64,000 bases of DNA from the IMG/VR virus record IMGVR_UViG_3300003691_000003, positions 14,097-78,096 of that record; one strand, 5' to 3'. Every line of letters begins with the position of its first letter. The first letter of the stretch is position 1. The notes beneath the pieces were generated by a model, which was not told where the DNA came from, made no database searches, and saw nothing but the letters and a program-made list of their open reading frames with translations. The position numbers and the translations under genes were made by a program. Source of the DNA: a virus (Duplodnaviria > Heunggongvirae > Uroviricota > Caudoviricetes). Below, piece by piece: positions 40 to 54,702 of this stretch.

Positions 40-3000
40 TTACTTCTTACCGGTTATCTTTATAGGGGTATTAACATCTATAGTACCTTTCTTCAAAGCC
101 TTTATAGCTGCACCTTCAGTTTTAAACTCTACAGTTTTTTGGTCCTTATTAGGTTCTGTTAAATGAACTGATCCTAGAATAGCTTCATGGCCAGGAGCAA
201 ACATGGCGTATCCATATCCTTTTCTAGCATCACTCAAATGATTAGTAGGCATCATCTTTTTCTTTGCTTCATCTACGGCTTCAGGAGTCATGGGTACAAA
301 GGTAGACATAGCGTCACCGTCGTAATCAGCAGCAAAGCCCGGTAAGTGCAATGGGTTCAACCCTATAGTCTTACCATCGACTGGTACAGGGAACATAGCC
401 ATTAGGTTAGTTCTCATGAGAGTAGGTGCCCTGTTAACAATAACTGGAACATCTTTTATTACTGCGTTAAATGCACTTTGAGCTGCGGTGTTGCGAGATT
501 CGTATGCCTTCTTAGCTTCAGGTCTACTGTAGCCTAATCTAGACAAATAACGTTCTATGTGGAATCTATACATCTCCCATAGTCCTTCCTTAGGATACTT
601 AATTTCGTTAAATCCTACATCTGGTGCAGCGTATATAGTTCCACGTCCAGAGAAATCCTGTTTCTTTTTAAGTATCTTATCTTGAAACATTCCTGTCTTA
701 GGGCCTTTAGTTCCAGATATTTGCTTAAGTATACCTTTGAGATCTTTACCTCTAACTGATCCAGAAATAGCATCTCCCATTCCCAGTGTAGCTTTTAGAG
801 CCTTATACATTCCGGCTCTTTCCTGAGTTAAGTATTCTGGAGAAATTTCGTTTATCAACTTTGACGTAGGAGAATCTACTAGCATATGATCTTTATAAAA
901 AGAGTTTATATCCGCATACTCTAGCTGGTTACCACCTTTATTTATCACAGGTCTCATGTTCGGAGGGAGTACTGGAATATTACGCAGTACGTAAGCATCT
1001 TTAGGATGCACTCCTGTGTTTAGCGATCCTTTTAGAAACTTAGCCTTTTTGATGTATGCGTTACGTCTAGATACAGCCGTAGCTTCTAAGGATCCTGTTA
1101 CTGATTCCTTTAGCTCTTTATCTACATCTATGTCTTCTAACATTGCCTCAAAAGCAGCACCGCTTACTAATGGTTCTTTTTCGGTATCGTCAGCTGCCTT
1201 CTTCAACAGGCCAGATCCTATAGTACGAACTGTAGTATCAGTTGCAGTATCAATTATGGAGTAGTGTCCTTTGCCATGCTTATTAACTCCCATAGCTCCG
1301 CTAACTATGCCATCGAATTCTTTCTTGTTCAACCCTAATATAGATTTCAGAGGTGTTTCAAACATAGGGTTAACCATGGGTTCTGCTAACTCATAGTGAC
1401 TCCACTTCTCACCTTTAAGTCCACCAGTTATACCTATGTCGAACAGTCCGCCTTTCTCAGGTTCTAAGTTTTTAGAACTAAGAAGCTTAGGGGTTTTTAT
1501 CACCCCGTTAGACATTTGTAAAATATCATGATCCGTCATTGGAGTAGCCTGAAGTACACCGTCTTTATTCTTAACATTAACTCCAGAGGCTTTGAGGTAA
1601 TCAAAGAACCTCTTAGACGCAAAAGTTTGCTTAGGCTTTGGAAGAGGTCTTCCACCTATGAAGCTATCCCAGAAGTCTGAGTTTTCCTCCGACTTTATAG
1701 TACCTATTTCTTTCAGGTTCTTTCTAGCATTGGATCCAAGTAACCCAAGGAATTCCATATACCCTACGCTCTTTGCACTTCTTTCACCACCCTTAGTTGG
1801 CTGGCTGTATGCATCATATCCGCCTACGCTACGAGCAGAATAATTGGAGTCGGTTGTCTTATATAACTTTAAGAAATACTGAGGTCCGGCCAACGCCTTT
1901 CCTAACGCCTTCCCCGTAGTAGGATCTACTATAGTATCGGTATCACTTAAGCCTAGTTCTTTTAGCTCAGACATAAGAGCTTTAATGTTACTCTTGTTTT
2001 CATAATTCTTAACCATGTAAGGAGAGCCTTTTTTATCAGCAATCTTACCGGCCACTGTTTCCATGACTTGTCCGAAGTTTATTCTACTAGTTACAGATGC
2101 AGGATTTAGCAATATATCTACTGCCTTGCCTGTAGTCTCGCTTATTGGCATATCATGGTCTTCTATTACTTTAGAAATTACACCTTTATTGCCGTGTAGC
2201 CCAGTTAGTTTATCACCTATTTCTAATGGCTTTACCGAGCGTGCAAGTATGCGAACATTCTTAGTCTCAGTATGTACATCTACTATTTCACCAGGCTCAT
2301 CGTGTTCCCAGTACTTAACTACTAATCGATAAGGATTTACCAGTATCTTGTTCAAGTTGCCCAGTACCTTATCCTCAGGAGTGACTTCTCTTTTTTCTAG
2401 AACTGCAAATACTGCGTCTCCATGTTCAAGTCGAGTACCTTTTATCACGAACCCTCTCTTATCCAGCTTCTTGAGTTGGTCAGGAGTTAACTTGCCAGAA
2501 GAATATCGTTTGAATATTTCTTTATTAGCAACTGTGTCTGCCCTCATAACATAATCATACTTGTACGAGTGTAAGCTGTTTAAAGATTTAGCAGCAGATC
2601 TGCTTATGACTAAACCATCTTCGTGGTTAAAACCTTTCCATGGTAGATAAGCACTGTACAGGTTTAACCCTAGGGCTAACTTCCCGTCTTTAGTGTAGTT
2701 ATTATCAGACAGTATCTGCCCCTTTTTAACTTTATCTCCTACTTTCAGCCCAGTAGGACTATCGTCCAAAAATCCCTTATTGTTAAAAGGTAGGCTTTTG
2801 ACAAAGTGTTCTGTATGTAACTTACCGTCTTTATCCTTTATAGCCATATACTTATTTGTTATCTTTGATACTATTCCGGAAGTAGGAGATATAGTACTTA
2901 TGTGATGACCTAGGGCATCCACGAAAGGCTTATGATTTTCGTCTAACGTTTGTACTATAGGTGCTTCTCTATTTTGTAATGACAATGCTTGGGGTATGGC

Positions 3001-4560
3001 CTTACCAGCCATGGTTAACCTGCCAGGGTGATTACTGTTTAGGAAAGGAACCAAGTTAGTTGTAATAGTGTACATATCCGCTGCATCTGCCAGCCAATAT
3101 TTAACTTTAGATCTGGGTACCATCTTAATCTTACCCTTATCTTGAGCATGTACTGATCTACCTTTCTTTTCTTTTTCTCCTGGAAATCCTACAGTGTTCT
3201 GCATCATTTCTACAGACGTTAGGTAGTGCTGCTTACCTGAGTTGTCTATAACTCTGGCGTACATATTGCCTTCTTTGTCTCTTCTAGCATTAACTGTGAA
3301 TCTCTGATCCACACCTACGCTGGCTGATTCCGGAGTTCTACTCGGATCTATGATGCCTAAATGGGATGGATCTATATTACGAGCCCCATCTGGTATGGAC
3401 TTATCATCTTTCACTCCACCTTCGCCTGGGCCTACAATAGTTAACTTGCCTACGCTTTCTAAGCTTTCTATAGGGTTAGTCTCCGTAGGAGCAGAAGATA
3501 GTGGAGATCTGAGTATGAAATCGGTAAAGATCTTGGTGTAAGGCTTTACGTGTATAGCGCTTTTAATCTTAGGATTTTCTTTTTTTATACGTTCCAGATT
3601 AAACGTAAGTTTATTAGTAGCCTTGCTTACCGTCTCATGGCTTCTCTCAGAATTAAATCTGCGCTCTATGAAATCAGATAGATTCTGTACACGCTTGAAC
3701 TGGAGAGAGTCTCGGTTATCTTCTTCTCGTTCTCCTTTGTACACTTTAACTAAATTGCTTATAGCCTTTACTATGACGTTTCCGCTAACATTAGTATGAC
3801 TGGCACCTAGCGTAATCTTTGTTGTGCTGGGATCTAGCTTTGTAGATTCTAAGGATAAACGAAGGGCTTGTATTTTTTCTTCCTTAGAGGCTTCTGCATT
3901 TTGATCTTTTCTAGGAACCATCTTTAGATACAAAGAGTTTATAGTCTTCTTATCAGTAGCGGCTGCCTGTGAGTTCTTAGACCAGATCTCAGAAGGTACA
4001 TACCTTTCCACGGAATCTCGTCCCATGCTAAATATATCAGTGAGGACAGGGCCCAGTAATGACTTAGTTCCTTTGACATCTATATAGAATAATTGATTCT
4101 TAGGATTCAAAGTTATACTGAAACTTTGACCTGATCCTGTATTAAACTGAGCCTCGAAAGTACCGTCGTCTTTAGCTCTAGAGTATACTCCAGGCTTGAG
4201 GAGTACTAAGTTAGCAACTGAATAATTGTTACCTTTGTACATGACCGTATGCTTTCCAGTCACGTGGAACGAATCCGCCAAAGGGAAATTCTTTTCAGAA
4301 TCAACTACCTTGTTAGTAGCCTTATCTATAAGTTGAAGATCCCCTTTTATAGGGTACGTTAAAGACTTTGACTTGAGGATAGCGTTCTTCTCGTCTCTAT
4401 GATCAAACGCTTTTTTGTCTACATGCACGTTTGCCACGGTCAATTTAAAGTCCCTATTCTCTATAGGGAACTGCTTGGCAATACCTGCTATCATTGACCT
4501 ATCTACATTCTTGCTAATATTAGCAGGGCTTTCATAAATAGGAGTAGTTCCTCTAGTCAT
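40..4560 (-). CDS. Single-chain, minimal multisubunit-type RNA polymerase (fused beta / beta-prime homolog). Probably virion-associated. It lacks the C-terminal beta-prime elements.
   Basis: Residues ~780-860 read [56 protein letters not shown]. This matches the RpoB C-terminal double-psi beta-barrel almost residue for residue (GDK.[39 protein letters not shown]..ET). Residues ~1415-1430 read [16 protein letters not shown], matching the RpoC Mg-binding loop NADFDGDQMAVHVPLT. Both motifs lie in one frame, beta first. The ORF ends ~85 aa after the DxDGD loop. It sits beside the portal-like and tail fiber genes on the same strand. Confidence 0.8.
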   Translation of the reverse strand: [1506 protein letters not shown]

Positions 4561-6928: not shown

Positions 6929-6953
6929 TGGTATAAGTATTGTGAAGGGAATA
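6929..6953 (+). promoter_or_regulatory. extended -10 phage promoter copy 1 (TGGTATAAGTATTGTGAAGGGAA)
   Basis: Matches the 18-copy consensus TGGTATAAGTAtTATGTAGaGAAAC, upstream of 7010. Confidence 0.5.
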
Positions 6954-28216: not shown

Positions 28217-28477
28217 ATGAATGATACAAAAGATAAACTGGTACAATCCGCCATGCCATGTCCTTTTTGCGGCAAGAAAGCTTCTCTAGATACCTACAAA
28301 CGTTACGTAGGAGGAGGAGCCTTCGGGAGAAGGAGAAGGTATGAATGCTCCTTTCGCTATTACTGTGCTAAGGGTTGTGCACAAACTCTTTACTACAAAA
28401 GAGAGTCTACTTGCTTAAAGAGATGGAACACTCGCTTTGGAAGTAAGGTAGAATCAGGTAGGCTGTTTAAGCTATGA
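28217..28477 (+). CDS. Lar-family restriction alleviation protein (zinc ribbon)
   Basis: MPCPFCGKKASL...YECSF.YYCAKGCAQTLYY...CLKRWNTRF. The PCPFCG N-terminal motif and the C-terminal W-N-x-R are the hallmarks of the Lar restriction-alleviation family. Confidence 0.55.
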   Translation: MNDTKDKLVQSAMPCPFCGKKASLDTYKRYVGGGAFGRRRRYECSFRYYCAKGCAQTLYYKRESTCLKRWNTRFGSKVESGRLFKL

Positions 28478-33192: not shown

Positions 33193-33378
33193 TTAGTCTA
33201 GTATCTGATCGTATATTAATTGATCAGCTTCTTCTCTCATATTATCATGAGTATCCCTATTGGCTTCTAGGTGCGATTCATCTATAGGCTTCTTAGGCTT
33301 GTCCTTAGGGGCAGAGAACAACACTTTTTTGTTATTCTCTTTTTTAGCTTCTGCGATTTTCTGCAAGTATATATTCAT
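33193..33378 (-). CDS. short member of the MNIYLEKIAE family
   Basis: Starts MNIYLQKIAEAKKENNKK. The first 36 nt are nearly identical at the DNA level to the other family members. Confidence 0.45.
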   Translation of the reverse strand: MNIYLQKIAEAKKENNKKVLFSAPKDKPKKPIDESHLEANRDTHDNMREEADQLIYDQILD

Positions 33379-39322: not shown

Positions 39323-39592
39323 ATGAATCCATTTAAAAAATTATTTGTAATAATGGTTGGCTTTTTTAAGAGATTAGGTCACTACGAACCAGACGTAACT
39401 TTCAGAACAAAAGAAGGAGTGAGGTACACAGTAGCGGAACCTGAAGCTTTCCTTGCAACAAGAGATCCGTTTAATATACAGATGGTTGAAAGGCTAAGAG
39501 AAGATGTATATGGTAGGTCTTACAGAACAAGGGAGTATATATCCTGGACAGATAAAAGGCCTGAAGAATTAATACCAGTTAGGGTGAAATGA
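39323..39592 (+). CDS. hypothetical protein
   Basis: AAGGAGG RBS before the ATG at 39323 (the track starts it at 39233). Confidence 0.45.
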   Translation: MNPFKKLFVIMVGFFKRLGHYEPDVTFRTKEGVRYTVAEPEAFLATRDPFNIQMVERLREDVYGRSYRTREYISWTDKRPEELIPVRVK

Positions 39593-40278
39593 GTATGGAC
39601 ACATGCAATAAATGTGGTGGCGAGCTAGACTGCCGGGCAGGGTGCTCTGCACATCCTAGTAATTGGTACTGTCCATCATGTACTAGTCAAAGCCAAGGGC
39701 TACCGGGGGGACATACTCCTGAAGCAATCTCCAAGATGAGTAATTCTTACTTGAGTCTTGGTATAGCCAAACTGGTCTTTCCACAGTACGTCATAACAAG
39801 AGCAGATAATGGAAGTGGCTACTCTGTTTTCGTAGAAGATTTTAATAATAAGGATAGCCATAGGGTCGTAGATTTTGTACACGACTGGTCCATAATAATG
39901 CCACTAGTAAGTAAGTATAAAGTAAAGCCAAATCCTTACAAGAGTGGAGAATGGAGAGCATCTAGCTTTGATATGAAACATATCGCCTATGCGTCTACTC
40001 TAGGGAGGGCCTACGCCGAATGCATCTACCTAATACTACTAGATAGCAAGCTTACGTCGAGTGAACCAGGTACAGCTCCTTGGATTAAAGATGTATCGGA
40101 ACATTCTCCTGTGCTATGCTGGGCGTGGAATGAAGGTGACGAGAAGCCGGCACCTACTCAAGTCTCAATGGTACAAAATGGTCAATATTTTGACGCTGAT
40201 CAAAGCTGGGAGTTCGCAACGCCTATAACCTCCGAAGGATTATGGAAAGGAGGGACATATGACGGCAGTAGTGTATGA
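39589..40278 (+). CDS. zinc-ribbon protein carrying the domain shared with 37257..37589
   Basis: N-terminal CNKCGGELDCRAGC...CPSC, plus the shared domain noted above. Confidence 0.5.
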   Translation: MSMDTCNKCGGELDCRAGCSAHPSNWYCPSCTSQSQGLPGGHTPEAISKMSNSYLSLGIAKLVFPQYVITRADNGSGYSVFVEDFNNKDSHRVVDFVHDWSIIMPLVSKYKVKPNPYKSGEWRASSFDMKHIAYASTLGRAYAECIYLILLDSKLTSSEPGTAPWIKDVSEHSPVLCWAWNEGDEKPAPTQVSMVQNGQYFDADQSWEFATPITSEGLWKGGTYDGSSV

Positions 40279-42086: not shown

Positions 42087-42427
42087 GTCATTACCCAGAT
42101 TTCTGGAAAATAGTAGTTTTAAAGATAAAGGACCGGATCGATCACAGAGTTGTAGGCGGATGGTCTGGAGGGTACTTAACTGGCGATAGCTGGAGAATAT
42201 CCTCTGGAATAACAAGTATTGTATCTATAGGTAAGTTCTACGAAGTACATAATACATCAGGTAGCGTGTACTACTGTAGGAAAGATTCAGAGAGGCTAAA
42301 CGCATACACCTCCTCTGTGGTAGAAGGTATGAAAGAGTCCTATGATATAAAGTTCGTAAGTATGGAAGATACCTTACTGGTAGTTAGCAATAGTACCGAG
42401 GATCCCGGAACCGACGATTCCAGCTAG
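42083..42427 (+). CDS. hypothetical protein
   Basis: 114-aa ORF with ATGA overlap. Confidence 0.45.
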   Translation: MSHYPDFWKIVVLKIKDRIDHRVVGGWSGGYLTGDSWRISSGITSIVSIGKFYEVHNTSGSVYYCRKDSERLNAYTSSVVEGMKESYDIKFVSMEDTLLVVSNSTEDPGTDDSS

Positions 42428-42619
42428 GTGCTTTTTCTTCATTAGCTTTGCTTGAGGTATTCTGTTTTTGATAACGTTGTTAGCCAACGTACTACCTACT
42501 TCATAACCACCGGCAGCACCTAAGATACCAGGGCCATAGTCTTTTATGGCCTTGATAACTTTATTAGGTTTCTTTTTAACCTTGGTACTTTCTGCGATTT
42601 TTTCTAGGTATATGTTCAT
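42374..42619 (-). CDS. MNIYLEKIAE-family small basic glycine-zipper protein
   Basis: Starts MNIYLEKIAESTK. Contains GILGAAGGYEVGSTL and GIVGSGILGTIA. Translationally coupled to the upstream family member. Confidence 0.55.
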   Translation of the reverse strand: MNIYLEKIAESTKVKKKPNKVIKAIKDYGPGILGAAGGYEVGSTLANNVIKNRIPQAKLMKKKHLAGIVGSGILGTIANYQ

Positions 42620-42622
42620 TTT

Positions 42623-43054
42623 TTATTTTTTCTTAGAATTCAAGTGTATCTTATCTTTGCCTAAGCTCTTGCCCATGTGGTGTCCTCCATATGTCCCTAG
42701 TGGACCTAAACCTACCAATGTTCCTATTCCAGAACCTACAGCTGCGTTATTAGCTACGGTTTTAAAATTTGCTTTCTGTTTAGCAGTGTAACCTTCTCCA
42801 AGTCTTTTAGGTATCATGGACCCTATGGTGCCTCCCACGACTGCTCCTCCGAGTGCCCCTGATAAGGCAGTTCTTATGCCTTTACCTATGCCTTTACGCC
42901 CATGGGCAATTGCAGATATTACTCCCATACCCCCGCCTATGTTTGCACCATGTGCCCCGCCTTCTGCTGCATGACTCAAAGGTACATCTTTATGGTTAGG
43001 TAATTTAGCCTTAGTCTTCTTAGCTTCTGCGATCTTTTCTAGGTATATGTTCAT
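42623..43054 (-). CDS. MNIYLEKIAE-family basic glycine-zipper protein
   Basis: Starts MNIYLEKIAEAKKTKAK. Gly-rich segments GGAHGANIGGGMGVISAIAHG and GALGGAVVGGTIGS. Confidence 0.55.
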   Translation of the reverse strand: MNIYLEKIAEAKKTKAKLPNHKDVPLSHAAEGGAHGANIGGGMGVISAIAHGRKGIGKGIRTALSGALGGAVVGGTIGSMIPKRLGEGYTAKQKANFKTVANNAAVGSGIGTLVGLGPLGTYGGHHMGKSLGKDKIHLNSKKK

Positions 43055-43137
43055 TTTTTAGTCCGTTTAAGCGAGGTATACGTTCGTAGGTAAATGTCAA
43101 CGTTTGTAAATCTATATTCAAGAGTTTAACACAAAAG

Positions 43138-43162
43138 CGGTATAAGTATATTGAGAGAGACC
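43138..43162 (+). promoter_or_regulatory. extended -10-like promoter copy 12 (CGG variant) ahead of the Cys-protein array
   Basis: CGGTATAAGTATATTGAGAGAGACC. Confidence 0.45.
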
Positions 43163-43193
43163 ACTTATTTTTAATAATCCAAGAGGACAGTTC

Positions 43194-43430
43194 ATGGATA
43201 ATACAACAATTGTACACTTGGTTCACAGAGTTAACTCTAAGAAGCCCAAGGAATGCATATATTGTACAAAGACGGCTGGGGATATATTAAACGAAGGTCA
43301 AAGGTTTTCTCATACTATTGGTGGGTATTACAGCAGGCTAGAAGGTGGTCGTAAAGCAAAGCCATGTTGCACCGTATCAAATAGGTTATTTTCTGGGAGA
43401 GAAGAATGCGAGTATCAGTTCACCTTGTAA
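43194..43430 (+). CDS. HLV-CxxC family member 1
   Basis: IVHLV..CIYC...C..SNRLF. Confidence 0.5.
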   Translation: MDNTTIVHLVHRVNSKKPKECIYCTKTAGDILNEGQRFSHTIGGYYSRLEGGRKAKPCCTVSNRLFSGREECEYQFTL

Positions 43431-43621
43431 CTATAGGTAGCCATCGTTGTCAATTTTGCAACATGGATGCAAATTCCATGGATGTATTCGAGCATCGTAT
43501 AGCGTCCACCATGGATAACTACGAAGAATATGTACATGAGTACGGTAAGGTCTTTATCCCTCACCCATGTACGCCACGAAACTCATCCAATAGAATGTTC
43601 AAGTCTAATAATGGAGAATAA
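43406..43621 (+). CDS. HLV-CxxC family member 2
   Basis: SVHLV..CQFC...C..SNRMF. Confidence 0.5.
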   Translation: MRVSVHLVTIGSHRCQFCNMDANSMDVFEHRIASTMDNYEEYVHEYGKVFIPHPCTPRNSSNRMFKSNNGE

Positions 43622-43622
43622 C

Positions 43623-43877
43623 ATGAAACGTATAAAACTACATCTCCTGAACGGAGATCCTTTCAAGCTAGAGGTAGGCAGCTACTGTGTAAAGTGCAAT
43701 ACGTCCCTGAATGATATCTTAGAAAATGACGAAGATTTCCAATACCTAGAACATAGGTATGAAAGATCTCTGTCTAGTCCTAGCGACTATCGCAGGTGCT
43801 ACAACCCTTCCATTGCTGGTTCAGATCGCTTATTTGGAGAAGGACATGCAAAAGACACGCAGGAAAGAGATAAGTAA
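43623..43877 (+). CDS. HLV-CxxC family member 3
   Basis: KLHLL..CVKC...C..SDRLF. The ATG at 43623 overlaps the upstream TAA. Confidence 0.5.
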   Translation: MKRIKLHLLNGDPFKLEVGSYCVKCNTSLNDILENDEDFQYLEHRYERSLSSPSDYRRCYNPSIAGSDRLFGEGHAKDTQERDK

Positions 43878-44085
43878 AACCGTAATACACCTAGTAACCG
43901 ACGATTCAAACCCTTTCTGTGAAGTGTGCGGAACACATATGACAGATATATGGGATAGTCCGGATCGAATCATACCTGAACCAAAATCATATCGTTTTAA
44001 GCTGAGTAACAGAGGTAGGCACTTCGCCAGCTGCAATCCTCACTCCGTATCCAACTCTGACCACTTATTTGAGAAAGAACTATGA
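43846..44085 (+). CDS. HLV-CxxC family member 4
   Basis: VIHLV..CEVCG...C..SDHLF. Start uncertain (the track shows a longer ORF from 43759). Confidence 0.4.
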   Translation: MQKTRRKEISKTVIHLVTDDSNPFCEVCGTHMTDIWDSPDRIIPEPKSYRFKLSNRGRHFASCNPHSVSNSDHLFEKEL

Positions 44086-44300
44086 GCCCTGAAAAGACAA
44101 TACATGTTTATGAAAGTGATACGTATCTATGTAATCGTTGCGGCATAGATCTAGACAGTACAGAGCATATATTAGAACGATGCGTAAGCGTACAGAGTGC
44201 TGAGATATTTTACGCTAAGGGAGATGGGCATATGTTGTGTTCTGGCCTAAGCAGATCGTCTTACTTATTTAAAAAAAGGGAGAAGATGATATATGACTGA
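44082..44300 (+). CDS. HLV-CxxC family member 5 (divergent)
   Basis: IHVY..CNRCG...C...SSYLF. Confidence 0.45.
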   Translation: MSPEKTIHVYESDTYLCNRCGIDLDSTEHILERCVSVQSAEIFYAKGDGHMLCSGLSRSSYLFKKREKMIYD

Positions 44301-44529
44301 TACACGAATACTCCACCTAGTTAGTAAAGGCGGCAAGTGCTCTAGATGCCATAAGAGTAAACAAGACTTTGAGCCTGACGTAGACGCCCGAACCGGTTCA
44401 GAAGGTTTGTATAAAAAATATGCAACTGGCGAGGAAATATCTGCCTACGGCGTTATCTACTATCCATGCGATGATACAACTGGAAGGGTATTCTCTTCCA
44501 AAGTAAACTTAGAAGGATTCAAGTTATGA
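44293..44529 (+). CDS. HLV-CxxC family member 6
   Basis: ILHLV..CSRC...C..GRVF...NLEGFKL. Confidence 0.5.
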   Translation: MTDTRILHLVSKGGKCSRCHKSKQDFEPDVDARTGSEGLYKKYATGEEISAYGVIYYPCDDTTGRVFSSKVNLEGFKL

Positions 44530-44771
44530 GATCTAATAGAATACTTCATTTAGTTCCTAATAAAGAGGAGCGTAGTTGTAAGGTATGCGGCAAGCATCAA
44601 CGTTTTTTTAACACAGAGAAAGAGTCGGTGGCTTATAACGAAAGGGTTTATAGAGAATTCGTAGTTGAAGGAAAAGCTAAATCGTTTAATCATGTCGAGT
44701 ATACAGCATGCTCTGGTCCAGTTACTAGAATGTTCAATGACGTAGTTAACTTAGAAGGATTCAAACTATGA
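44526..44771 (+). CDS. HLV-CxxC family member 7
   Basis: MRSNRILHLV..CKVCG...C..TRMFNDVVNLEGFKL. Confidence 0.55.
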   Translation: MRSNRILHLVPNKEERSCKVCGKHQRFFNTEKESVAYNERVYREFVVEGKAKSFNHVEYTACSGPVTRMFNDVVNLEGFKL

Positions 44772-45004
44772 GATCTAATAGAATACTTCATTTAGTTCTT
44801 ACAGATGAGCGTAGGTGTGAGATATGTAATAGGTATGTACACACTGTTAATCGTGAAAGAGAATCAGTCACTCGTAACAGCACCTTATACCGAGAGGCAG
44901 TATCCTTGACTAAGTCTTTTAGCACTACTAAGTACATAGTATGTTCAACACCAGTTACTAGAATGTTCAATGACGTAGTTAACTTAGAAGGATTCAAACT
45001 ATGA
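44768..45004 (+). CDS. HLV-CxxC family member 8
   Basis: MRSNRILHLV..CEIC...C..TRMFNDVVNLEGFKL. The N- and C-termini are identical to member 7 and the middle is divergent. Confidence 0.55.
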   Translation: MRSNRILHLVLTDERRCEICNRYVHTVNRERESVTRNSTLYREAVSLTKSFSTTKYIVCSTPVTRMFNDVVNLEGFKL

Positions 45005-45210
45005 GCCTATCAACTGAGACGCCGTCTAGGATATGTCACTTTATGGACAAGGGTAAATGTACCGTGTGCGGAATGGAAACCAAATACCTAATAGCTTTAG
45101 ATGCAGACTTTCTTTTCGCCATCAGCCTACCTACTTACTCTGAAACTTTAAGAAAAGGTAAAGCAGTTGCCTGCGGGTCTAATTCTCATAGGTTATTCAG
45201 TAGTCTGTAA
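45001..45210 (+). CDS. HLV-CxxC family member 9 (divergent)
   Basis: ICHF..CTVCG...C..SHRLF. Confidence 0.45.
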   Translation: MSLSTETPSRICHFMDKGKCTVCGMETKYLIALDADFLFAISLPTYSETLRKGKAVACGSNSHRLFSSL

Positions 45211-45222
45211 CGTGGTAGTTTT

Positions 45223-45247
45223 TGGTATAAGTAATGTGAGGAGGATT
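45223..45247 (+). promoter_or_regulatory. extended -10 promoter copy 13, internal to the array
   Basis: TGGTATAAGTAATGTGAGGAGG. Confidence 0.5.
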
Positions 45248-45249
45248 TT

Positions 45250-45507
45250 ATGGATATACTTAATGAGGTTGAATACACTCTTCATTTACTGGGAAAGACT
45301 GGTAGCAAATGTAAGTTCTGTGGCTTGGATAATAAGGACTTAGTAATCAACGTAAATTACCATCTTTTTACTGGCAGCAAAGATACTTACAGAGTATGCA
45401 TGGCTGCACGCACTAAAGACAATAGTGCAGTTTATTATATTAGCTGTAAGAAAGATTATGGTGGCCTATTTGATTCACCTGTTAACTTAGAAGGATTCAA
45501 ACTATGA
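45250..45507 (+). CDS. HLV-CxxC family member 10
   Basis: LHLL..CKFCG...C...GGLFDSPVNLEGFKL. Preceded by promoter copy 13. Confidence 0.5.
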   Translation: MDILNEVEYTLHLLGKTGSKCKFCGLDNKDLVINVNYHLFTGSKDTYRVCMAARTKDNSAVYYISCKKDYGGLFDSPVNLEGFKL

Positions 45508-45743
45508 CTGCAATATATCGGACATTACATAGGATTGAACAGCCTTATAGTCTAAAGTGCAAACATTGCGGAATGAGAGTTATTGACATGGGGTGGCAGG
45601 ATAGAACCTCTTCTTATCAGTCTGAGTATATGGTCTTACTAAACCCGAAAGGTGACGAGAATACGATAACTAGTTATTCTGCATGCGTAGATATGCATAG
45701 GTTTTTTAAGACGTACGTTAAACTGGCGGGGTTCAAACTATGA
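45504..45743 (+). CDS. HLV-CxxC family member 11
   Basis: LHRI..CKHCG...C..MHRFF...AGFKL. Confidence 0.5.
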   Translation: MTAIYRTLHRIEQPYSLKCKHCGMRVIDMGWQDRTSSYQSEYMVLLNPKGDENTITSYSACVDMHRFFKTYVKLAGFKL

Positions 45744-45982
45744 AGGATATACGTAAGAGACAAATAACAGTTCATCTTGCTAGTAAGAATGCTCCAGATC
45801 AGTGCAAGCTTTGCAGGAAGGTAGTGAGTAGATTTTCTTACACGCATATATGCACGACTGAGATAAGGTTCTATGAAGACAGGTTATCTAATACACACCC
45901 TGATACGGCAACGTATAATGAGTGCAGAAAAATAGGTAGACTGTTTAATGCATATGCAGTGACAAGAGGATTCAAGCTGTGA
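45740..45982 (+). CDS. HLV-CxxC family member 12
   Basis: TVHLA..CKLC...C..IGRLF...RGFKL. Confidence 0.5.
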   Translation: MKDIRKRQITVHLASKNAPDQCKLCRKVVSRFSYTHICTTEIRFYEDRLSNTHPDTATYNECRKIGRLFNAYAVTRGFKL

Positions 45983-46221
45983 CTATACGGCTACTACGGA
46001 ATATAACTCTACATTTCGTAAGGGATGTACAGCACAACTACTGCGACGTTTGCGGAAAGCTGTTTGAAGACTTCTCTATAGATGATAAGTTTACTTCAGA
46101 CGAAGGACACTACGGCGACAGGCTATACCACGTCAAGTTCGATAGTGTAAAGTACGTCTCTTGCAGAATGGAAAGTAGATTATTCAAGGGACATACGGTG
46201 GTAGGAGGATTCAAGCTGTGA
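45979..46221 (+). CDS. HLV-CxxC family member 13
   Basis: GTG start. TLHFV..CDVCG...C..SRLF...GGFKL. Confidence 0.5.
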   Translation: MTIRLLRNITLHFVRDVQHNYCDVCGKLFEDFSIDDKFTSDEGHYGDRLYHVKFDSVKYVSCRMESRLFKGHTVVGGFKL

Positions 46222-46493
46222 CAAAATTAGTAGACAGTCATCGTGTACTTCACTTAACAAATGGAGTAGAACGTATATGTAGGTATTGTGGCAGAGAGGA
46301 TACGAGGGATTATGGACACGCATTCGTAGAGCGCAGGTCTACCTACCAAGATTTCGTGGGCAGGGCTTCAAAGCTTTTCGCAACTAAACCAACATTTTAT
46401 AAATCATGTAAGACGGTGACTCCGTCTGATAGATTATTCGTAAACGGAGAAAGATCATATGGCAACGGAAATAGAGAGAAAGTTCTTAGTTAA
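46218..46493 (+). CDS. HLV-CxxC family member 14
   Basis: GTG start. VLHLT..CRYCG...C..SDRLF. Confidence 0.5.
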   Translation: MTKLVDSHRVLHLTNGVERICRYCGREDTRDYGHAFVERRSTYQDFVGRASKLFATKPTFYKSCKTVTPSDRLFVNGERSYGNGNREKVLS

Positions 46494-46959
46494 AAATAAT
46501 AGTTTTTTACTTAAAGCGGCAATGGCACCTATCAAGATATATCAAGGTTACCTATCAACAGACCCGACTAAGACTATTCGTATTCGCATAACTGAGTGGC
46601 CAGGCAAAGAACCTTTTGCCGAGCTAACTATCAAAGGTATTGGCAACGATAGTGGGACTTCTAGAAAAGAATGGGAAGTACTTATACCTATAGAAGATGC
46701 TCTAGAGATGATTAACTTATGTGATAATGAAATCATAAAGAAGAAAAGGTATTTACTTAGAGAGAAGCGTAGCATGTTCGAGGTAGATGTCTTTGAAGGT
46801 TCATTGGCAGGTTTGGTTATAGCTGAGATAGAACTGGATAGTGAAGATCAGGAAATTGAAAGACCATCTTGGCTAGGTAAAGAAGTTACTGGTCAGATAA
46901 AGTACTACAATTCATTCTTAGCTGAACATCCAACCACCGATCACGGGAGAACATCATGA
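46459..46959 (+). CDS. CYTH-domain protein (triphosphate tunnel metalloenzyme: class IV adenylate cyclase / triphosphatase-like)
   Basis: Begins MATEIERKFLV, the ExExK signature that opens CYTH/CyaB/ThTPase domains. Length 166 aa, with alternating beta-strand-like charged/hydrophobic pattern and an acidic patch EIELDSEDQEIE. Confidence 0.6.
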   Translation: MATEIERKFLVKNNSFLLKAAMAPIKIYQGYLSTDPTKTIRIRITEWPGKEPFAELTIKGIGNDSGTSRKEWEVLIPIEDALEMINLCDNEIIKKKRYLLREKRSMFEVDVFEGSLAGLVIAEIELDSEDQEIERPSWLGKEVTGQIKYYNSFLAEHPTTDHGRTS

Positions 46960-47234
46960 GAGAGAAGATGCAGGTTTACATTCCTCATATTACTCAGAAG
47001 CAATTCGATAGTGAGGATGCAGCTCTTACTCCTAGAGAGGGTAAGTTTTTCATATCTCGTCAACGTTCTATTCAGACGCTCGAAAGAGCTCTAAAGAAAC
47101 ATCCTAAGGAGACTGGGTACATAAAGATATTCGAACTTAGTCTTAAGAAGATAGTAACCATGGATGACATCAATGAAGAGATAAGAGAGGCAAAATGCAA
47201 GACATCACTGAAGAAAAAAAGACTACTCTGGTAA
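46956..47234 (+). CDS. hypothetical protein
   Basis: 92-aa ORF with ATGA overlap. Confidence 0.45.
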   Translation: MREKMQVYIPHITQKQFDSEDAALTPREGKFFISRQRSIQTLERALKKHPKETGYIKIFELSLKKIVTMDDINEEIREAKCKTSLKKKRLLW

Positions 47235-47638
47235 TGATACGTGGACTTCCTGGATCAGGTAAAAGTACTATGGCCCGGAAGCTTGTCGATGAACAGGGCT
47301 ATTGCCATTTCGAGAATGACATGTACCATATCAACGATGGTGTCTACGATTTTGACGTTAATAAGGTCGTAGAAGCTGGGCTGTGGTGTAGAGGAAAGGT
47401 GGAAGAAGAATTAGCCAAAGGTAATAACGTAGTGGTCAGTAATACTTTCATAGAATTCATACACATGTCTTTCTACATCAACCTAATCAGTGATAATGGA
47501 TATAAGCTAGAGATCTTGGAAGCCACCGGCAACTATGGTAGTGTCTACGACGTTCCTGTCCATGTCTTGGCTAGCATGAAGAAGCGTTGGCAAGAGCTGT
47601 CTGACATGAGATCCACTGTAATACACACGGGGTTTTAA
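47195..47638 (+). CDS. P-loop polynucleotide 5'-kinase-like protein (kinase domain only)
   Basis: Walker A MIRGLPGSGKSTMA. The C-terminal VPVHVLASMKKRWQEL resembles the T4 Pnk kinase-domain end VPIDVLRSMYKSMREYL. Its 147-aa length equals the T4 Pnk kinase domain. Confidence 0.55.
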   Translation: MQDITEEKKTTLVMIRGLPGSGKSTMARKLVDEQGYCHFENDMYHINDGVYDFDVNKVVEAGLWCRGKVEEELAKGNNVVVSNTFIEFIHMSFYINLISDNGYKLEILEATGNYGSVYDVPVHVLASMKKRWQELSDMRSTVIHTGF

Positions 47639-47815
47639 ATGAGAGCCAGACGAAGTTCCGACCAAAAGTTGGAAAGACTCAAGAAGCGAAATAATCCTCG
47701 CAATATGCCAGTAGGCCCATTCACCGGTAGATGTAGTTACTGTGAAAGCGATGACCTCTGGGATGATGAAACAATGTATGGCTGCAAGTGTTGTGGCAAA
47801 ATGTACCGTAATTAA
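47639..47815 (+). CDS. small zinc-ribbon ORF
   Basis: 58-aa ORF, not in the track, with CSYC...CKCCG. Confidence 0.35.
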   Translation: MRARRSSDQKLERLKKRNNPRNMPVGPFTGRCSYCESDDLWDDETMYGCKCCGKMYRN

Positions 47816-51072: not shown

Positions 51073-51631
51073 AGCTCTCAGATAACTTCTTTAACTTACG
51101 CCTAGCTTGAGCAGCTTTGCGCTTATCGTATCTCTCTTTCGATGATTTTTTCTTGGAGTTTATATATGAACCCACTAACGCTCCTGTCGTCACCCCAGCT
51201 CCTAGACCAGTCTTAAGTGCAGCTTTAGCAGCGTAATTACCCAGCTTTCCTCTTACTACTTTAGCTCGTCTATCTCGGTAAGTTTGAAAGGACTTAATAG
51301 TGGCGTCATGTGGTGAAAGCCCATGTTTACGACTAAGGCGTTCTGCTCGTACCATAACGTCCCTAGGGATAGTACCCTGATTAGTCTTTACCATCTTCTT
51401 AGACTTCATAGCTGCGCTACTTGCAGCTTCATTGGTAAACATTTCTTCACTATATCTCTTAAAACCGACTGTCCCACCTACGTAACCACCGACGAGTGCA
51501 CCAGTCCTTACAGGATGCATCTTTTCATGATCCGGTGTTTTCATTCTCTTGTCAATGTAGCTACTGTATCTACTCCGCAAGCTTTTCTTTTTACCCTTAG
51601 CTTCTGCGATTTTTTCTAAGTATACGTTCAT
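51071..51631 (-). CDS. MNIYLEKIAE-family basic glycine-zipper protein
   Basis: Starts MNVYLEKIAEAKGKKKSLRS. Contains GALVGGYVGGTVG and GLGAGVTTGALVGSY. Confidence 0.55.
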   Translation of the reverse strand: MNVYLEKIAEAKGKKKSLRSRYSSYIDKRMKTPDHEKMHPVRTGALVGGYVGGTVGFKRYSEEMFTNEAASSAAMKSKKMVKTNQGTIPRDVMVRAERLSRKHGLSPHDATIKSFQTYRDRRAKVVRGKLGNYAAKAALKTGLGAGVTTGALVGSYINSKKKSSKERYDKRKAAQARRKLKKLSES

Positions 51632-51633
51632 TC

Positions 51634-52530
51634 TTAGTTACCTTTCTTCTGATGTTTAGTGTATACCTTATCGGCTATTTTCTTAGTTACGTGCAAAGCT
51701 CCGCCTTTGGCTGCTGCAGAAGTGACGTACGTACCCATTGCCGCTGCTAATCCTGGAACAGCTTTGAGCATTTTCTTCTTACCTAAATGTTTTTTCATCT
51801 TGCGTAAGGCATGAGTATTTGCATAACCCTCGTCTGCCAATGTAGGTAACTGAGATGCTAGAGCCACTGCTTGAGACCTATCCCTAGTTTTTTGATTCTT
51901 ACTATATATGCCAAGGGCTGCTACGCCACCTACGTTAGAGGACATGCCCCTAGCACGAGTCATAGCCTTCCCTATATATTTTTTGTTATGTAGTTTAGCG
52001 TGACCCTGTTCATGTAGTAGGGCGCCAATGTCCCCATTCCCCCCTCCAGATATAACACCTTTGCGGGATATGCCCTTAGTTTTGGGGATGTACATCGGAC
52101 TATGTCCTACTGTCACATTAAGAGCACCGGCATTGATTTGCCTAAGACGGCTTACTGCCTTTCTGTAATTCTTACCCAACGTAGCATTAGCAAAAGGTAG
52201 TCTAGTCCTACTCTTGACAGGGGTGATTATCTTATCTGCTCTTCTACTACCTGCTTCAGAGTTACCTGATATCGACGTAACCTTACCCACTAACTTGTCT
52301 TCTTTCATGGATTTCTTGTACGCAGACAATTCTTTTTTAGAATACTTGTTGCTACCCCTATCCATCTCTTTATTCATCTTGTTGTGTAAGGCTTTGTTGG
52401 CAACCCCGGCTGCGCCACCTATTATGGTTGATGGGACAAACGCCTTAACGAAGGTCTCGCCTATATGATACTTTCGCTTATCTTTCTTCTTACTCTTAGC
52501 TTCTGCGATTTTTTCCAAGTATATGTTCAT
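51634..52530 (-). CDS. MNIYLEKIAE-family basic glycine-zipper protein (largest member)
   Basis: Starts MNIYLEKIAEAKSKKKDKRKY. Contains IIGGAAGVANKA, GGGNGDIGALLHEQGHAKLH and LAAAMGTYVTSAAAKGG. Confidence 0.55.
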   Translation of the reverse strand: MNIYLEKIAEAKSKKKDKRKYHIGETFVKAFVPSTIIGGAAGVANKALHNKMNKEMDRGSNKYSKKELSAYKKSMKEDKLVGKVTSISGNSEAGSRRADKIITPVKSRTRLPFANATLGKNYRKAVSRLRQINAGALNVTVGHSPMYIPKTKGISRKGVISGGGNGDIGALLHEQGHAKLHNKKYIGKAMTRARGMSSNVGGVAALGIYSKNQKTRDRSQAVALASQLPTLADEGYANTHALRKMKKHLGKKKMLKAVPGLAAAMGTYVTSAAAKGGALHVTKKIADKVYTKHQKKGN

Positions 52531-53830: not shown

Positions 53831-53856
53831 AGGGCTAACAACCCTTTCTTTTAGCT
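53831..53856. terminator. terminator-like hairpin with the CCCTTTCTTTTAGC flank between convergent genes
   Basis: AGGG-ctaacaa-CCCT then TTCTTTTAGC. The stem is short. Confidence 0.35.
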
Positions 53857-54702
53857 AGGCATTACATGTACGTAAGTCCACGGGTCGTGCTTATTACTCT
53901 TGGATGCATTATCAGGCCCCGTCAATGGTTGTAGATTGTAATGTACGTGTAACCCACATACTAACTTCCCCATTAATGGTACTATATGATCGTTTTGAAA
54001 AGCTATGCCGGTTAGCTCAGATAGGTCAGAAGTTTCCTGGTACACAGCTGTGGTCTTCTTAGAATCAAACCAAGGAGGAGTCGCATGCTTCTTAGTAGCT
54101 CTTCGTTTTGCCCAATGTGCCCGCATCTGAGGCCTATGAGTATCTCTGTACCGCTTATAGACAAGCAATCGTTCAGGTTTGGTACGGAGATAATAATCTC
54201 TTTGTTCAATTTTTATTCTCTCTCGGTTAGCTTCTCGGTATTTAATAACTCTAGTGCGTATCTTCTCCTTATTGGCAAGACGGTACTTTTTATCTCTTAT
54301 GCGTATCTTCTCCTTATTAGTATCTCTATACCTCTGCTGCTGCTCGTCCATCCTCTCCTTGTTAGCTGCTCGGTACGCCCTGTAAGTCTCATGCTTAGAT
54401 TCTTGGTAGTTAGCGAAGTGTTCTGGGCCCTTTGCACGTTCAGCTTCGAGTTTTTTTAATTCGTTAGCCCTTCTAATAGAGTTGATGTAATCCTTATTTT
54501 TAGCATGATGCTCCCGTGCCCGTTTACGCATCCTCTCTGGATCTTCAAGCCTGGCCATTCTTCGAGACTCATTCATGCAAGTAACACATCGGGTATTATC
54601 CACTCTGCGTTCGACAACGTGTCCATGCTTACACGGCCCACCAGTAAAGTATGTCTTGAGGCCCTGCTCTTTTGCTTCTTTTCTTAGTATTATCGTTTTC
54701 AT
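53851..54702 (-). CDS. HNH endonuclease with an internal Lys/Arg-rich repeat region (putative homing endonuclease)
   Basis: N-terminal zinc-binding GGPCKHGH...CVTC. Four ~15-aa repeats NKE(K/R)I.....YR.A. The C-terminal NDHIVPLMGKLVCGLHVHYNLQPLTGPDNASKSNK is paralogous to the HNH core of 20509..21162. Confidence 0.6.
   Translation of the reverse strand: MKTIILRKEAKEQGLKTYFTGGPCKHGHVVERRVDNTRCVTCMNESRRMARLEDPERMRKRAREHHAKNKDYINSIRRANELKKLEAERAKGPEHFANYQESKHETYRAYRAANKERMDEQQQRYRDTNKEKIRIRDKKYRLANKEKIRTRVIKYREANRERIKIEQRDYYLRTKPERLLVYKRYRDTHRPQMRAHWAKRRATKKHATPPWFDSKKTTAVYQETSDLSELTGIAFQNDHIVPLMGKLVCGLHVHYNLQPLTGPDNASKSNKHDPWTYVHVMPS

Follow-up and report, generated by a model that had tools for sequence, protein, structure and literature searches.

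The stretch analysed here (the window) comprises 64,000 nt of a tailed-phage genome (positions 14,097 to 78,096 of IMG/VR record IMGVR_UViG_3300003691_000003) and carries, at 43194-46493, an array of 14 consecutive plus-strand genes (m01 to m14, Table 1) that encode small paralogous proteins of 69-91 residues. The proteins share one His, a CxxC knuckle, a third Cys and a C-terminal Phe, and they form a new family, possibly with a new mini-fold, within a familiar genomic phenomenon. Judged by their sequence divergence, the paralogs are old and under purifying selection, with local gene conversion spanning the gene junctions and not rapid ongoing diversification. Their function is addressed more tentatively: they may be small, zinc-stabilised proteins that bind or inhibit their targets in host take-over or counter-defence.

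The array and its protein family

The same-strand array of 14 genes had been described in an earlier note on this DNA and is present as described there. Start codons with an upstream Shine-Dalgarno sequence were taken as gene starts in preference to the longest open reading frames (ORFs), and with these starts the protein sizes fall below the ~70-110 residues previously given. The ORFs of 115 and 108 residues are longest-ORF artefacts, the likely starts being at 43623 and 43846; for m03, a longer ORF from 43530 is unlikely, as the 43623 start carries a GGAG Shine-Dalgarno sequence. Each of the 14 ORFs is intact, and their Shine-Dalgarno sequences and starts look functional. The genes were thought to be joined by ATGA/GTGA stop-start overlaps, and such 4-nt overlaps are found at 8 of the 13 internal junctions (44082, 44526, 44768, 45001, 45504, 45740, 45979 and 46218) but not at the other five, which have overlaps of 25, 32 and 8 nt, a gap of 1 nt and, between m09 and m10, a promoter-bearing gap of 39 nt. 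Public assemblies do not call m04 as a gene, which may be due to its 32-nt overlap with m03, and its exact protein is absent from a collection of 15 billion proteins.

Pairwise identity between the paralogs is 12-35%, with the exception of m07/m08 at 60%. In a MAFFT alignment the His, the CxxC, the third Cys and the Phe of RLF are invariant in 14/14 members, and one Tyr is at least 90% conserved. The skeleton proposed in the earlier note is thereby confirmed, as five invariant columns joined by a near-invariant Tyr. The His precedes the CxxC knuckle by 7-15 residues (mostly 8-10), the third Cys follows the knuckle at a distance of 32-41 residues, and the Phe sits within an [RH][LM]F motif. The alignment contains no conserved block of 7-10 columns. 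With isoelectric points (pI) between 5.9 and 9.8, the proteins do not form a uniform set of nucleic-acid binders or DNA mimics.

Family membership was assessed with leave-one-out hidden Markov models (HMMs) against the 713 stop-to-stop segments of the window. These recover 13 of the 14 members with E = 1e-4 to 1e-22. The remaining one, m05, scores a marginal E = 0.41, yet it is the top non-training match and carries every motif, and it can be treated as a divergent member. A motif regular expression matches exactly the 14 array members, m05 included, among the same 713 segments and has zero matches in 274 kb of related phage DNA. There is no 15th family member within the window.

Predicted fold and candidate zinc site

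AlphaFold2 was run on m01 and m07 and gave consistent models. Confidence (predicted local distance difference test, pLDDT; means in Table 1) is 80-93 across the first 50-60 residues and low in the tail. The two models share the order of elements: strand 1 with the His, the CxxC knuckle, a short helix, strand 2, helix 2 with the conserved Tyr, and strand 3, followed by the third Cys and by a low-confidence tail that contains RLF and GFKL. The core is thus predicted to be a β-α-β-α-β fold of ~60 residues, in which the knuckle follows the His-bearing first strand and the third Cys closes the third. Foldseek searches with the models found no match, the best values being E = 0.83 in BFVD and E = 4 in the PDB.

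The four invariant candidate ligands all fall in the high-confidence part of both models. His, CxxC and Cys plausibly form a structural zinc site, because four potential ligands stay invariant in sequences that otherwise drift freely. The small zinc-binding fold that the earlier note had suggested from the same residues therefore remains plausible, the set being invariant in every member.

Junctions and the shared C-terminal tail

Eight members end in GFKL, and in all eight exactly 11 residues separate the invariant Phe from the C-terminus. The longer ending NLEGFKL, previously said to close many of the proteins, is found in four of these eight. Within the DNA that codes for the tail (...AACTTAGAAGGATTCAAACTATGA) lie a GAAGGA/AGGAGG Shine-Dalgarno sequence and the start of the next gene, which overlaps it. 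A 27-nt junction sequence (Table 1) is identical at 44745, 44978 and 45481, and is matched at 89% at 44503 and at 78% at 45717. The sequence TTCAARYTRTGA occurs seven times against 0.12 expected, in the array only, and a scan for the junction pattern found no match in GTDB genomes or IMG/VR.

That the C-terminus is constant is thus not purely a matter of the protein but partly one of the nucleotide sequence, in which the following gene has its Shine-Dalgarno sequence and its overlapping start. The GFKL peptide is itself also under selection, since it is preserved although its Lys and Leu codons show synonymous variation (AAA/AAG; CTA/CTG/TTA). The locus thus exemplifies a dual constraint, with the C-terminus shaped both by selection on the peptide and by the ribosome-binding site of the next gene. 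The genes are tightly packed, and the frequent placing of a downstream ribosome-binding site and start inside the last codons of the upstream gene implies translation that would be coupled and roughly co-ordinate.

Evolution of the array

Synonymous sites are saturated: the proportion of synonymous differences (pS) has a median of 0.74 over all pairs and exceeds 0.6 in 93% of them, so that the ratio of nonsynonymous to synonymous substitution rates (dN/dS) is uninformative over all pairs. In four of the five less saturated pairs that give a ratio it is 0.33-0.62, and for m07/m10 it is 1.03. Similarity of the core is independent of position in the array (Mantel p = 0.44), which argues against a simple pattern of recent duplication between neighbours. 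Three ENA metagenome assemblies (ERZ27335239, ERZ27335247 and ERZ27335248) carry the sequence at 99.9% identity, with all 14 genes in the same order and four single-nucleotide polymorphisms (SNPs) in the array, two of them synonymous. The genes had been called rapidly diversifying; this is not supported, given saturated synonymous sites, a dN/dS that for most of the less saturated pairs is ~0.2-0.6, and nearly identical copies in the three assemblies.

Why do some neighbouring genes share identical ends? In m07 and m08, the first 30 nt (10 codons) and the last 51 nt (17 codons) are identical at every nucleotide, as the earlier note had seen. The middles are not completely different, as it held; their 51 codons can be aligned at ~39% amino-acid identity (pS 0.73, dS ~2.7, dN 0.54, dN/dS ~0.2). 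Given this middle, zero synonymous change at the ends has P ~1e-10. In a permutation test of the longest identical run, five of the six pairs among m06, m07, m08 and m10 have p < 0.001 and m06/m07 has p = 0.006; a few other pairs have p = 0.003-0.04, without correction for multiple testing, and the remaining pairs are not flagged. Mosaicism by recombination thus holds for m07/m08 but is no general property of the array, being limited to these four genes. The pattern fits homogenisation, by gene conversion, of the junction-spanning ends within the subgroup m06-m08 and m10. Diversification driven by a diversity-generating retroelement (DGR) was rejected on the mismatch spectrum, since the 70 mismatches between m07 and m08 lack an adenine bias (A in m07 at 18, in m08 at 20), no systematic search for a reverse transcriptase gene having been made.

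The earlier note had seen here recombination-driven diversification of a variable core between constant ends. In an active cassette system of this kind, the constant ends would promote recombination that continually swaps hypervariable cores under positive selection. The m07/m08 ends around their diverged middle, the 27-nt sequence shared by three junctions and the significantly long identical runs among m06, m07, m08 and m10 would all fit such a system. It is nevertheless quite unlikely: the m07/m08 middle is saturated at synonymous sites with a low dN/dS and is thus old and constrained, the other 10 members lack the mosaic pattern, the three environmental copies are independent and keep the same genes and order with only four SNPs, and the mismatch spectrum is not of DGR type. 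The mosaic ends are better explained by gene conversion of old paralogs, centred on the junctions, than by a mechanism that generates variable cores, and gene conversion across junctions can mimic a pattern of constant ends and variable core. Still less probable is that tandem duplication produced the array in a largely neutral way, as a set of selfish or decaying orphan genes with no specific function. The restriction of the family to a single lineage and the hyper-plastic genome region around it would agree with neutrality, but 14 of 14 ORFs are intact with functional-looking translation signals, five columns are invariant at 12-35% identity and most of the less saturated pairs have a dN/dS below 1.

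Searches for homologues

No Pfam, PHROG or NCBIfam family scores above threshold for any member. An exhaustive HMMER profile search of 1.84 billion representatives of ~15 billion proteins returned only 12 proteins of the window itself and one spurious eukaryotic C2H2 zinc-finger protein, and a word-indexed search of 5.8 billion clusters returned self matches only at E <= 10. The HMM and motif scans found no member in Salmonella phage Arash (1-131 kb) or Vibrio phage D69 (1-143 kb), nor in four IMG/VR loci and three GenBank contigs with CYTH homologues. At the DNA level, a near-identity search of GenBank phages matched neither the array nor a neighbouring block of 12 kb, and tblastn of one member against phages gave no match. 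Left-out paralogs score 7-76 bits, about half of them below the ~35 bits needed at whole-library scale; isolated, very divergent homologues could thus be missed, although an array of them probably would not. The family was not recognised in the earlier note, and the database and fold searches likewise return no relative beyond the window's own proteins.

Promoter-like motifs and expression

The two promoter motifs that the earlier note held to drive the array are real as motifs, with exact copies of GGTATAAGTA at 43139 and 45224 (Table 1), the first of them in the 139-nt divergent intergenic region 43055-43193. The window holds 13 exact copies, 12 of them on the plus strand, and 26 matches with at most one mismatch against 8.2 expected by chance. 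Ten of the 12 plus-strand copies, including those of m01 and m10, are followed after 16-70 nt by a start codon that has a Shine-Dalgarno sequence ahead of it. The copies share a conserved downstream extension, tWNTGaRg, and about half of them have a CAATAA-like element ~16 nt upstream. In its full form, tGGTATAAGTAtWNTGaRg, the motif often has the CAATAA element upstream and an TTTAACAC element further upstream. Other sites in the window are, for example, at 6930, 14285, 28951, 32681, 33965, 34629, 48238 and 53007, and the motif as a whole is strongly biased to the plus strand and associated with gene starts.

The array thus falls into two blocks, m01-m09 and m10-m14, each headed by a promoter-like motif, and the second block continues into the CYTH and kinase genes; no convincing terminator is predicted between the array and these two genes. 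The lone exact copy of GGTATAAGTA on the minus strand (46679-46688) lies within the CYTH gene and faces the array without the usual downstream extension, and it could be a chance occurrence or an antisense promoter.

Genomic setting

The window comes from a large phage that encodes SNF2 and DEAD helicases, a primase and thymidylate synthase. Its RNA polymerase gene (40-4560, minus strand) is a single ORF of 1506 residues in which β (Rpb2 domains) and β' (Rpb1 domains) are fused, and the product is 51-54% identical to homologues of Salmonella phage Arash and Vibrio phages D69, D148 and D181. This similarity places the window in the poorly studied clade of these phages; relatives of the window phage encode sigma factors. 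Arash is described as an "orphan" phage (PMC10585845). The sequence of the window also exists in JGI and, as a 78-kb contig, in NCBI whole-genome shotgun project JQIA01.

Only two ORFs in the 30-60 kb interval of the window have Arash/D69 homologues (E < 1e-5), namely the CYTH gene at 46459-46959 and a minus-strand gene at 53851-54702. To judge from this gene content, the interval that holds the array is an extremely plastic, hyper-variable accessory region. Rfam and tRNA scans of the window gave no matches.

Five minus-strand genes (33193-33378, 42374-42619, 42623-43054, 51634-52530 and an ORF starting at 51631) begin with MN(I/V)YL(E/Q)KIAEAK and are otherwise dissimilar and often Gly-rich. 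Two of them lie directly upstream of the array and are transcribed divergently from it. Their N-terminus resembles MKTYQEFIAE, the capsid-targeting sequence of T4 internal proteins, which is cleaved after Glu (PMC8442874), and by this analogy the five genes may encode capsid-packaged or injected proteins. Two nearby plus-strand genes encode further small or Cys-rich proteins with no HMM relation to the array: one of 58 residues with CxxC...CxxC (47639-47815) and one of 229 residues with an N-terminal CNKCG...CPSC (39589-40278).

Table 1. Genes, promoter-like motifs and repeated tracts of the array and its surroundings (window coordinates).
Feature	Position	Strand	Protein (aa)	Leave-one-out E	Description
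Promoter-like motif GGTATAAGTA (extended form GGTATAAGTAtattgaga)	43139..43148	+			45 nt upstream of m01 start
m01	43194..43430	+	78	1.3e-7	H8, C21xxC24, C58, RLF; without GFKL tail; AlphaFold2 pLDDT 76.7
m02	43406..43621	+	71	2.4e-8	25-nt overlap with m01
m03	43623..43877	+	84	1.2e-4	GGAG Shine-Dalgarno; public gene call gives the same 84-aa protein
m04	43846..44085	+	79	5.4e-6	Shine-Dalgarno GGAGAAGGA; 32-nt overlap with m03
m05	44082..44300	+	72	0.41	most divergent (IHV...CNRC...C...YLF); ATGA overlap with m04
m06	44293..44529	+	78	6.9e-14	NLEGFKL end
m07	44526..44771	+	81	1.3e-22	NLEGFKL end; ATGA overlap with m06; AlphaFold2 pLDDT 78.4
Identical 5' tract	44526-44555 = 44768-44797	+			m07 and m08 starts
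Identical 55-nt tract	44718..44772 = 44951-45005	+			m07 3' end and m08 start = m08 3' end and m09 start
Junction 27-mer GTTAACTTAGAAGGATTCAAACTATGA	44745..44771	+			encodes VNLEGFKL-stop, GAAGGA Shine-Dalgarno and ATG of the next gene
m08	44768..45004	+	78		NLEGFKL end; 60% identity to m07
m09	45001..45210	+	69	2.4e-5	closes first operon; short tail (SSL)
Second promoter-like motif GGTATAAGTA	45224..45233	+			in 39-nt m09/m10 gap, 16 nt before m10 ATG
m10	45250..45507	+	85	1.4e-14	NLEGFKL end
m11	45504..45743	+	79	2.8e-9	KLAGFKL end
m12	45740..45982	+	80	7.1e-12	TRGFKL end; most basic member, pI 9.8
m13	45979..46221	+	80	3.1e-13	GTG start within GTGA overlap; GGFKL end
m14	46218..46493	+	91	9.1e-9	GTG start; long tail, 35-nt overlap with downstream CYTH gene
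CYTH-domain gene	46459..46959	+			Pfam match; overlaps m14; probably co-transcribed
AAA_33 kinase-like gene	47195-47638				downstream of CYTH gene

Possible functions

Small orphan genes are numerous in large phages, and the characterised ones often prove to encode precise inhibitors of host machinery or immunity. The size, position and expansion of the array genes suggest a role in host take-over or anti-defence, and the reading preferred here, which we hold to be possible though short of probable, is that they encode zinc-stabilised small binding or inhibitor proteins to this end. They are a multigene family restricted to one lineage, that of a large, uncultivated lytic phage distantly related to Arash, D69, D148 and D181. 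In each member the His, CxxC and Cys would bind a structural zinc ion, and the specificity surface would be formed by the variable residues that separate the knuckle from the third Cys. The [RH][LM]F motif, followed in eight members by the GFKL tail of fixed length, would form a flexible C-terminal tail that contacts a shared partner, and the members together would constitute a panel of small binders or inhibitors of different host (or phage) macromolecules. Several points weigh against this. The proteins are tied to no specific target or defence system, and the family is confined to one genome lineage; the searches found neither a homologue of known function nor a fold match; the alignments given to AlphaFold2 consisted of the 14 paralogs only; and zinc binding is predicted from conservation only. 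A more specific version, in which a novel zinc mini-fold, with a discontinuous His-CxxC-Cys site on a β-α-β-α-β scaffold, has been expanded into 14 co-expressed inhibitors, each directed at a different host defence or housekeeping target, and the RLF...GFKL tail docks onto a common partner such as a protease, a clamp or the phage RNA polymerase, is rather unlikely.

Could the proteins act on nucleic acids instead? Small zinc-finger regulators that bind nucleic acids, as transcription or translation factors on DNA or RNA of the phage or its host and possibly with the phage RNA polymerase, would be in keeping with the pI above 7.7 of 8 of the 14 members, the net charge of +7 to +9 of m12 and m14, a CxxCG knuckle typical of zinc ribbons with sub-threshold zinc-ribbon matches, and a phage that encodes its own RNA polymerase and whose relatives encode sigma factors. 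This too we regard as unlikely: an operon with 14 divergent regulators would be out of the ordinary, the pI of several members (5.9-6.5) is acidic or neutral, and there is neither an above-threshold match to a DNA- or RNA-binding zinc family nor a canonical second knuckle. The chance that the proteins are packaged in the virion (internal or injected) or are minor structural components is slight. For Arash, 116 proteins are listed as belonging to the mature particle (PMC10585845), and its virions were found to contain many small hypothetical proteins; in the window, the genes directly upstream of the array, on the other strand, encode proteins with a T4-like capsid-targeting N-terminus. The array proteins, however, lack an N-terminus of the MNIYLEKIAE type, and their genes, which have replication and accessory genes around them, are not on the strand that encodes the candidate packaged proteins but on the opposite one. 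Most doubtful of all is a redox-active CxxC dithiol in a fold like that of thioredoxin, glutaredoxin or NrdH. The strand-loop-CxxC-helix layout and β-α-β-α-β order do recall T4 glutaredoxin and NrdH, and GF[KR] near the C-terminus recalls the NrdH motif SGFRP, but hhalign gives a probability of 0.2-1% with the CxxC alone aligned, there is no Pfam Glutaredoxin or Thioredoxin match, and a dithiol mechanism leaves the invariant His and third Cys unexplained.

The array offers 14 natural variants of one scaffold in a single operon, a comparative series on the surface that would determine the target. If the small binding proteins preferred above prove zinc-dependent and diverse in target, they would constitute a new protein family directed against the host or its defences, and would provide a compact binding scaffold that could be engineered.

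Comparison with known systems

Among known zinc-binding proteins, zinc ribbons of the two-knuckle or rubredoxin-like type do not correspond to the array family, in which only one CxxC is conserved together with a single His and a single Cys. The curated zinc-ribbon families DUF5679, Zn_ribbon_RPAB4, Zn_ribbon_recom and HVO_0649 each match one member, the reported Pfam scores being below gathering cut-offs. The C2H2 finger (C-x2-4-C-x12-H-x3-5-H, ~28 residues) has its ligands in another order than the H...CxxC...C of the array; matches to Gfi-1, ZBTB17 and P0013 align only over the linker H-TGEKP-x-C-x2-C, and those of the PDB profile search are likewise C2H2 inter-finger linkers that mimic H-x7-C-x2-C. 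The ZAS anti-sigma motif, H-x3-C-x2-C, differs from the array in its spacing, the His-to-Cys distance there being 7-15 residues.

A small Lar-like (restriction-alleviation) zinc-ribbon protein is encoded elsewhere in the window (28217-28477, plus strand, 86 residues); PF14354 is its precomputed annotation, and a scan scored it at 27.1 bits, slightly below the Pfam cut-off of 28.6. It resembles the array proteins in its size, its CxxCG knuckle and its FKL-stop/ATG overlap junction, and it ends in GRLFKL. The array family differs from the Lar-type zinc ribbon in having one CxxC knuckle with a distant His and a single Cys. No array member matches Lar (PF14354) at E <= 0.1, hhalign against the window's Lar-like protein (28217-28474) gives a probability of 6.5% over 12 columns, and an alignment attempt with Lar recovered only the query itself; on this evidence a relationship is rejected. 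Glutaredoxin, NrdH and T4 thioredoxin share with the array proteins a length of ~80 residues and the strand-loop-CxxC-helix layout. They were set aside as relatives, since hhalign gives 0.2% against NrdH and 1.0% against T4 glutaredoxin over 10-12 columns, with query sequences that are approximate, and a structure search with the models did not recover the thioredoxin-fold topology.

At the level of gene organisation, the tandem polyimmunity arrays of SUKH/SuFu type also consist of adjacent divergent paralogs, each presumed to neutralise a different partner (PMC3113570). The array has no relation to them in sequence or fold and no associated toxin genes, so that the likeness is one of analogy only.

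Large lytic phages carry clusters of small early genes for host take-over, as in the host-takeover module of Bacillus phage SPO1 and the early small ORFs of T4. The array shares with these clusters a dense, same-strand series of genes for ~70-90 residues, strong Shine-Dalgarno sequences, repeated promoter motifs and a place in a non-conserved accessory region, beside genes of nucleotide and RNA metabolism. The genomic features of such a cluster are found here: promoter-like motifs, Shine-Dalgarno sequences with overlapping genes, and a non-conserved region. The proteins of SPO1 and T4 are mostly unrelated to one another, whereas those described here are 14 paralogs with a conserved His/Cys set. 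Closest to home is Arash itself, the nearest relative that has been characterised, whose accessory region contains nine tandem genes for small paralogs of 59-70 residues, gp73c-gp81c, that likewise have short overlaps (OQ632216, 47003-48743). They belong to an unrelated family with a G-D-x-V-type motif in 8/9 members and no conserved Cys or His, and the array HMM does not match them. Arrays of small genes are thus a recurrent feature of the Arash/D69 clade.

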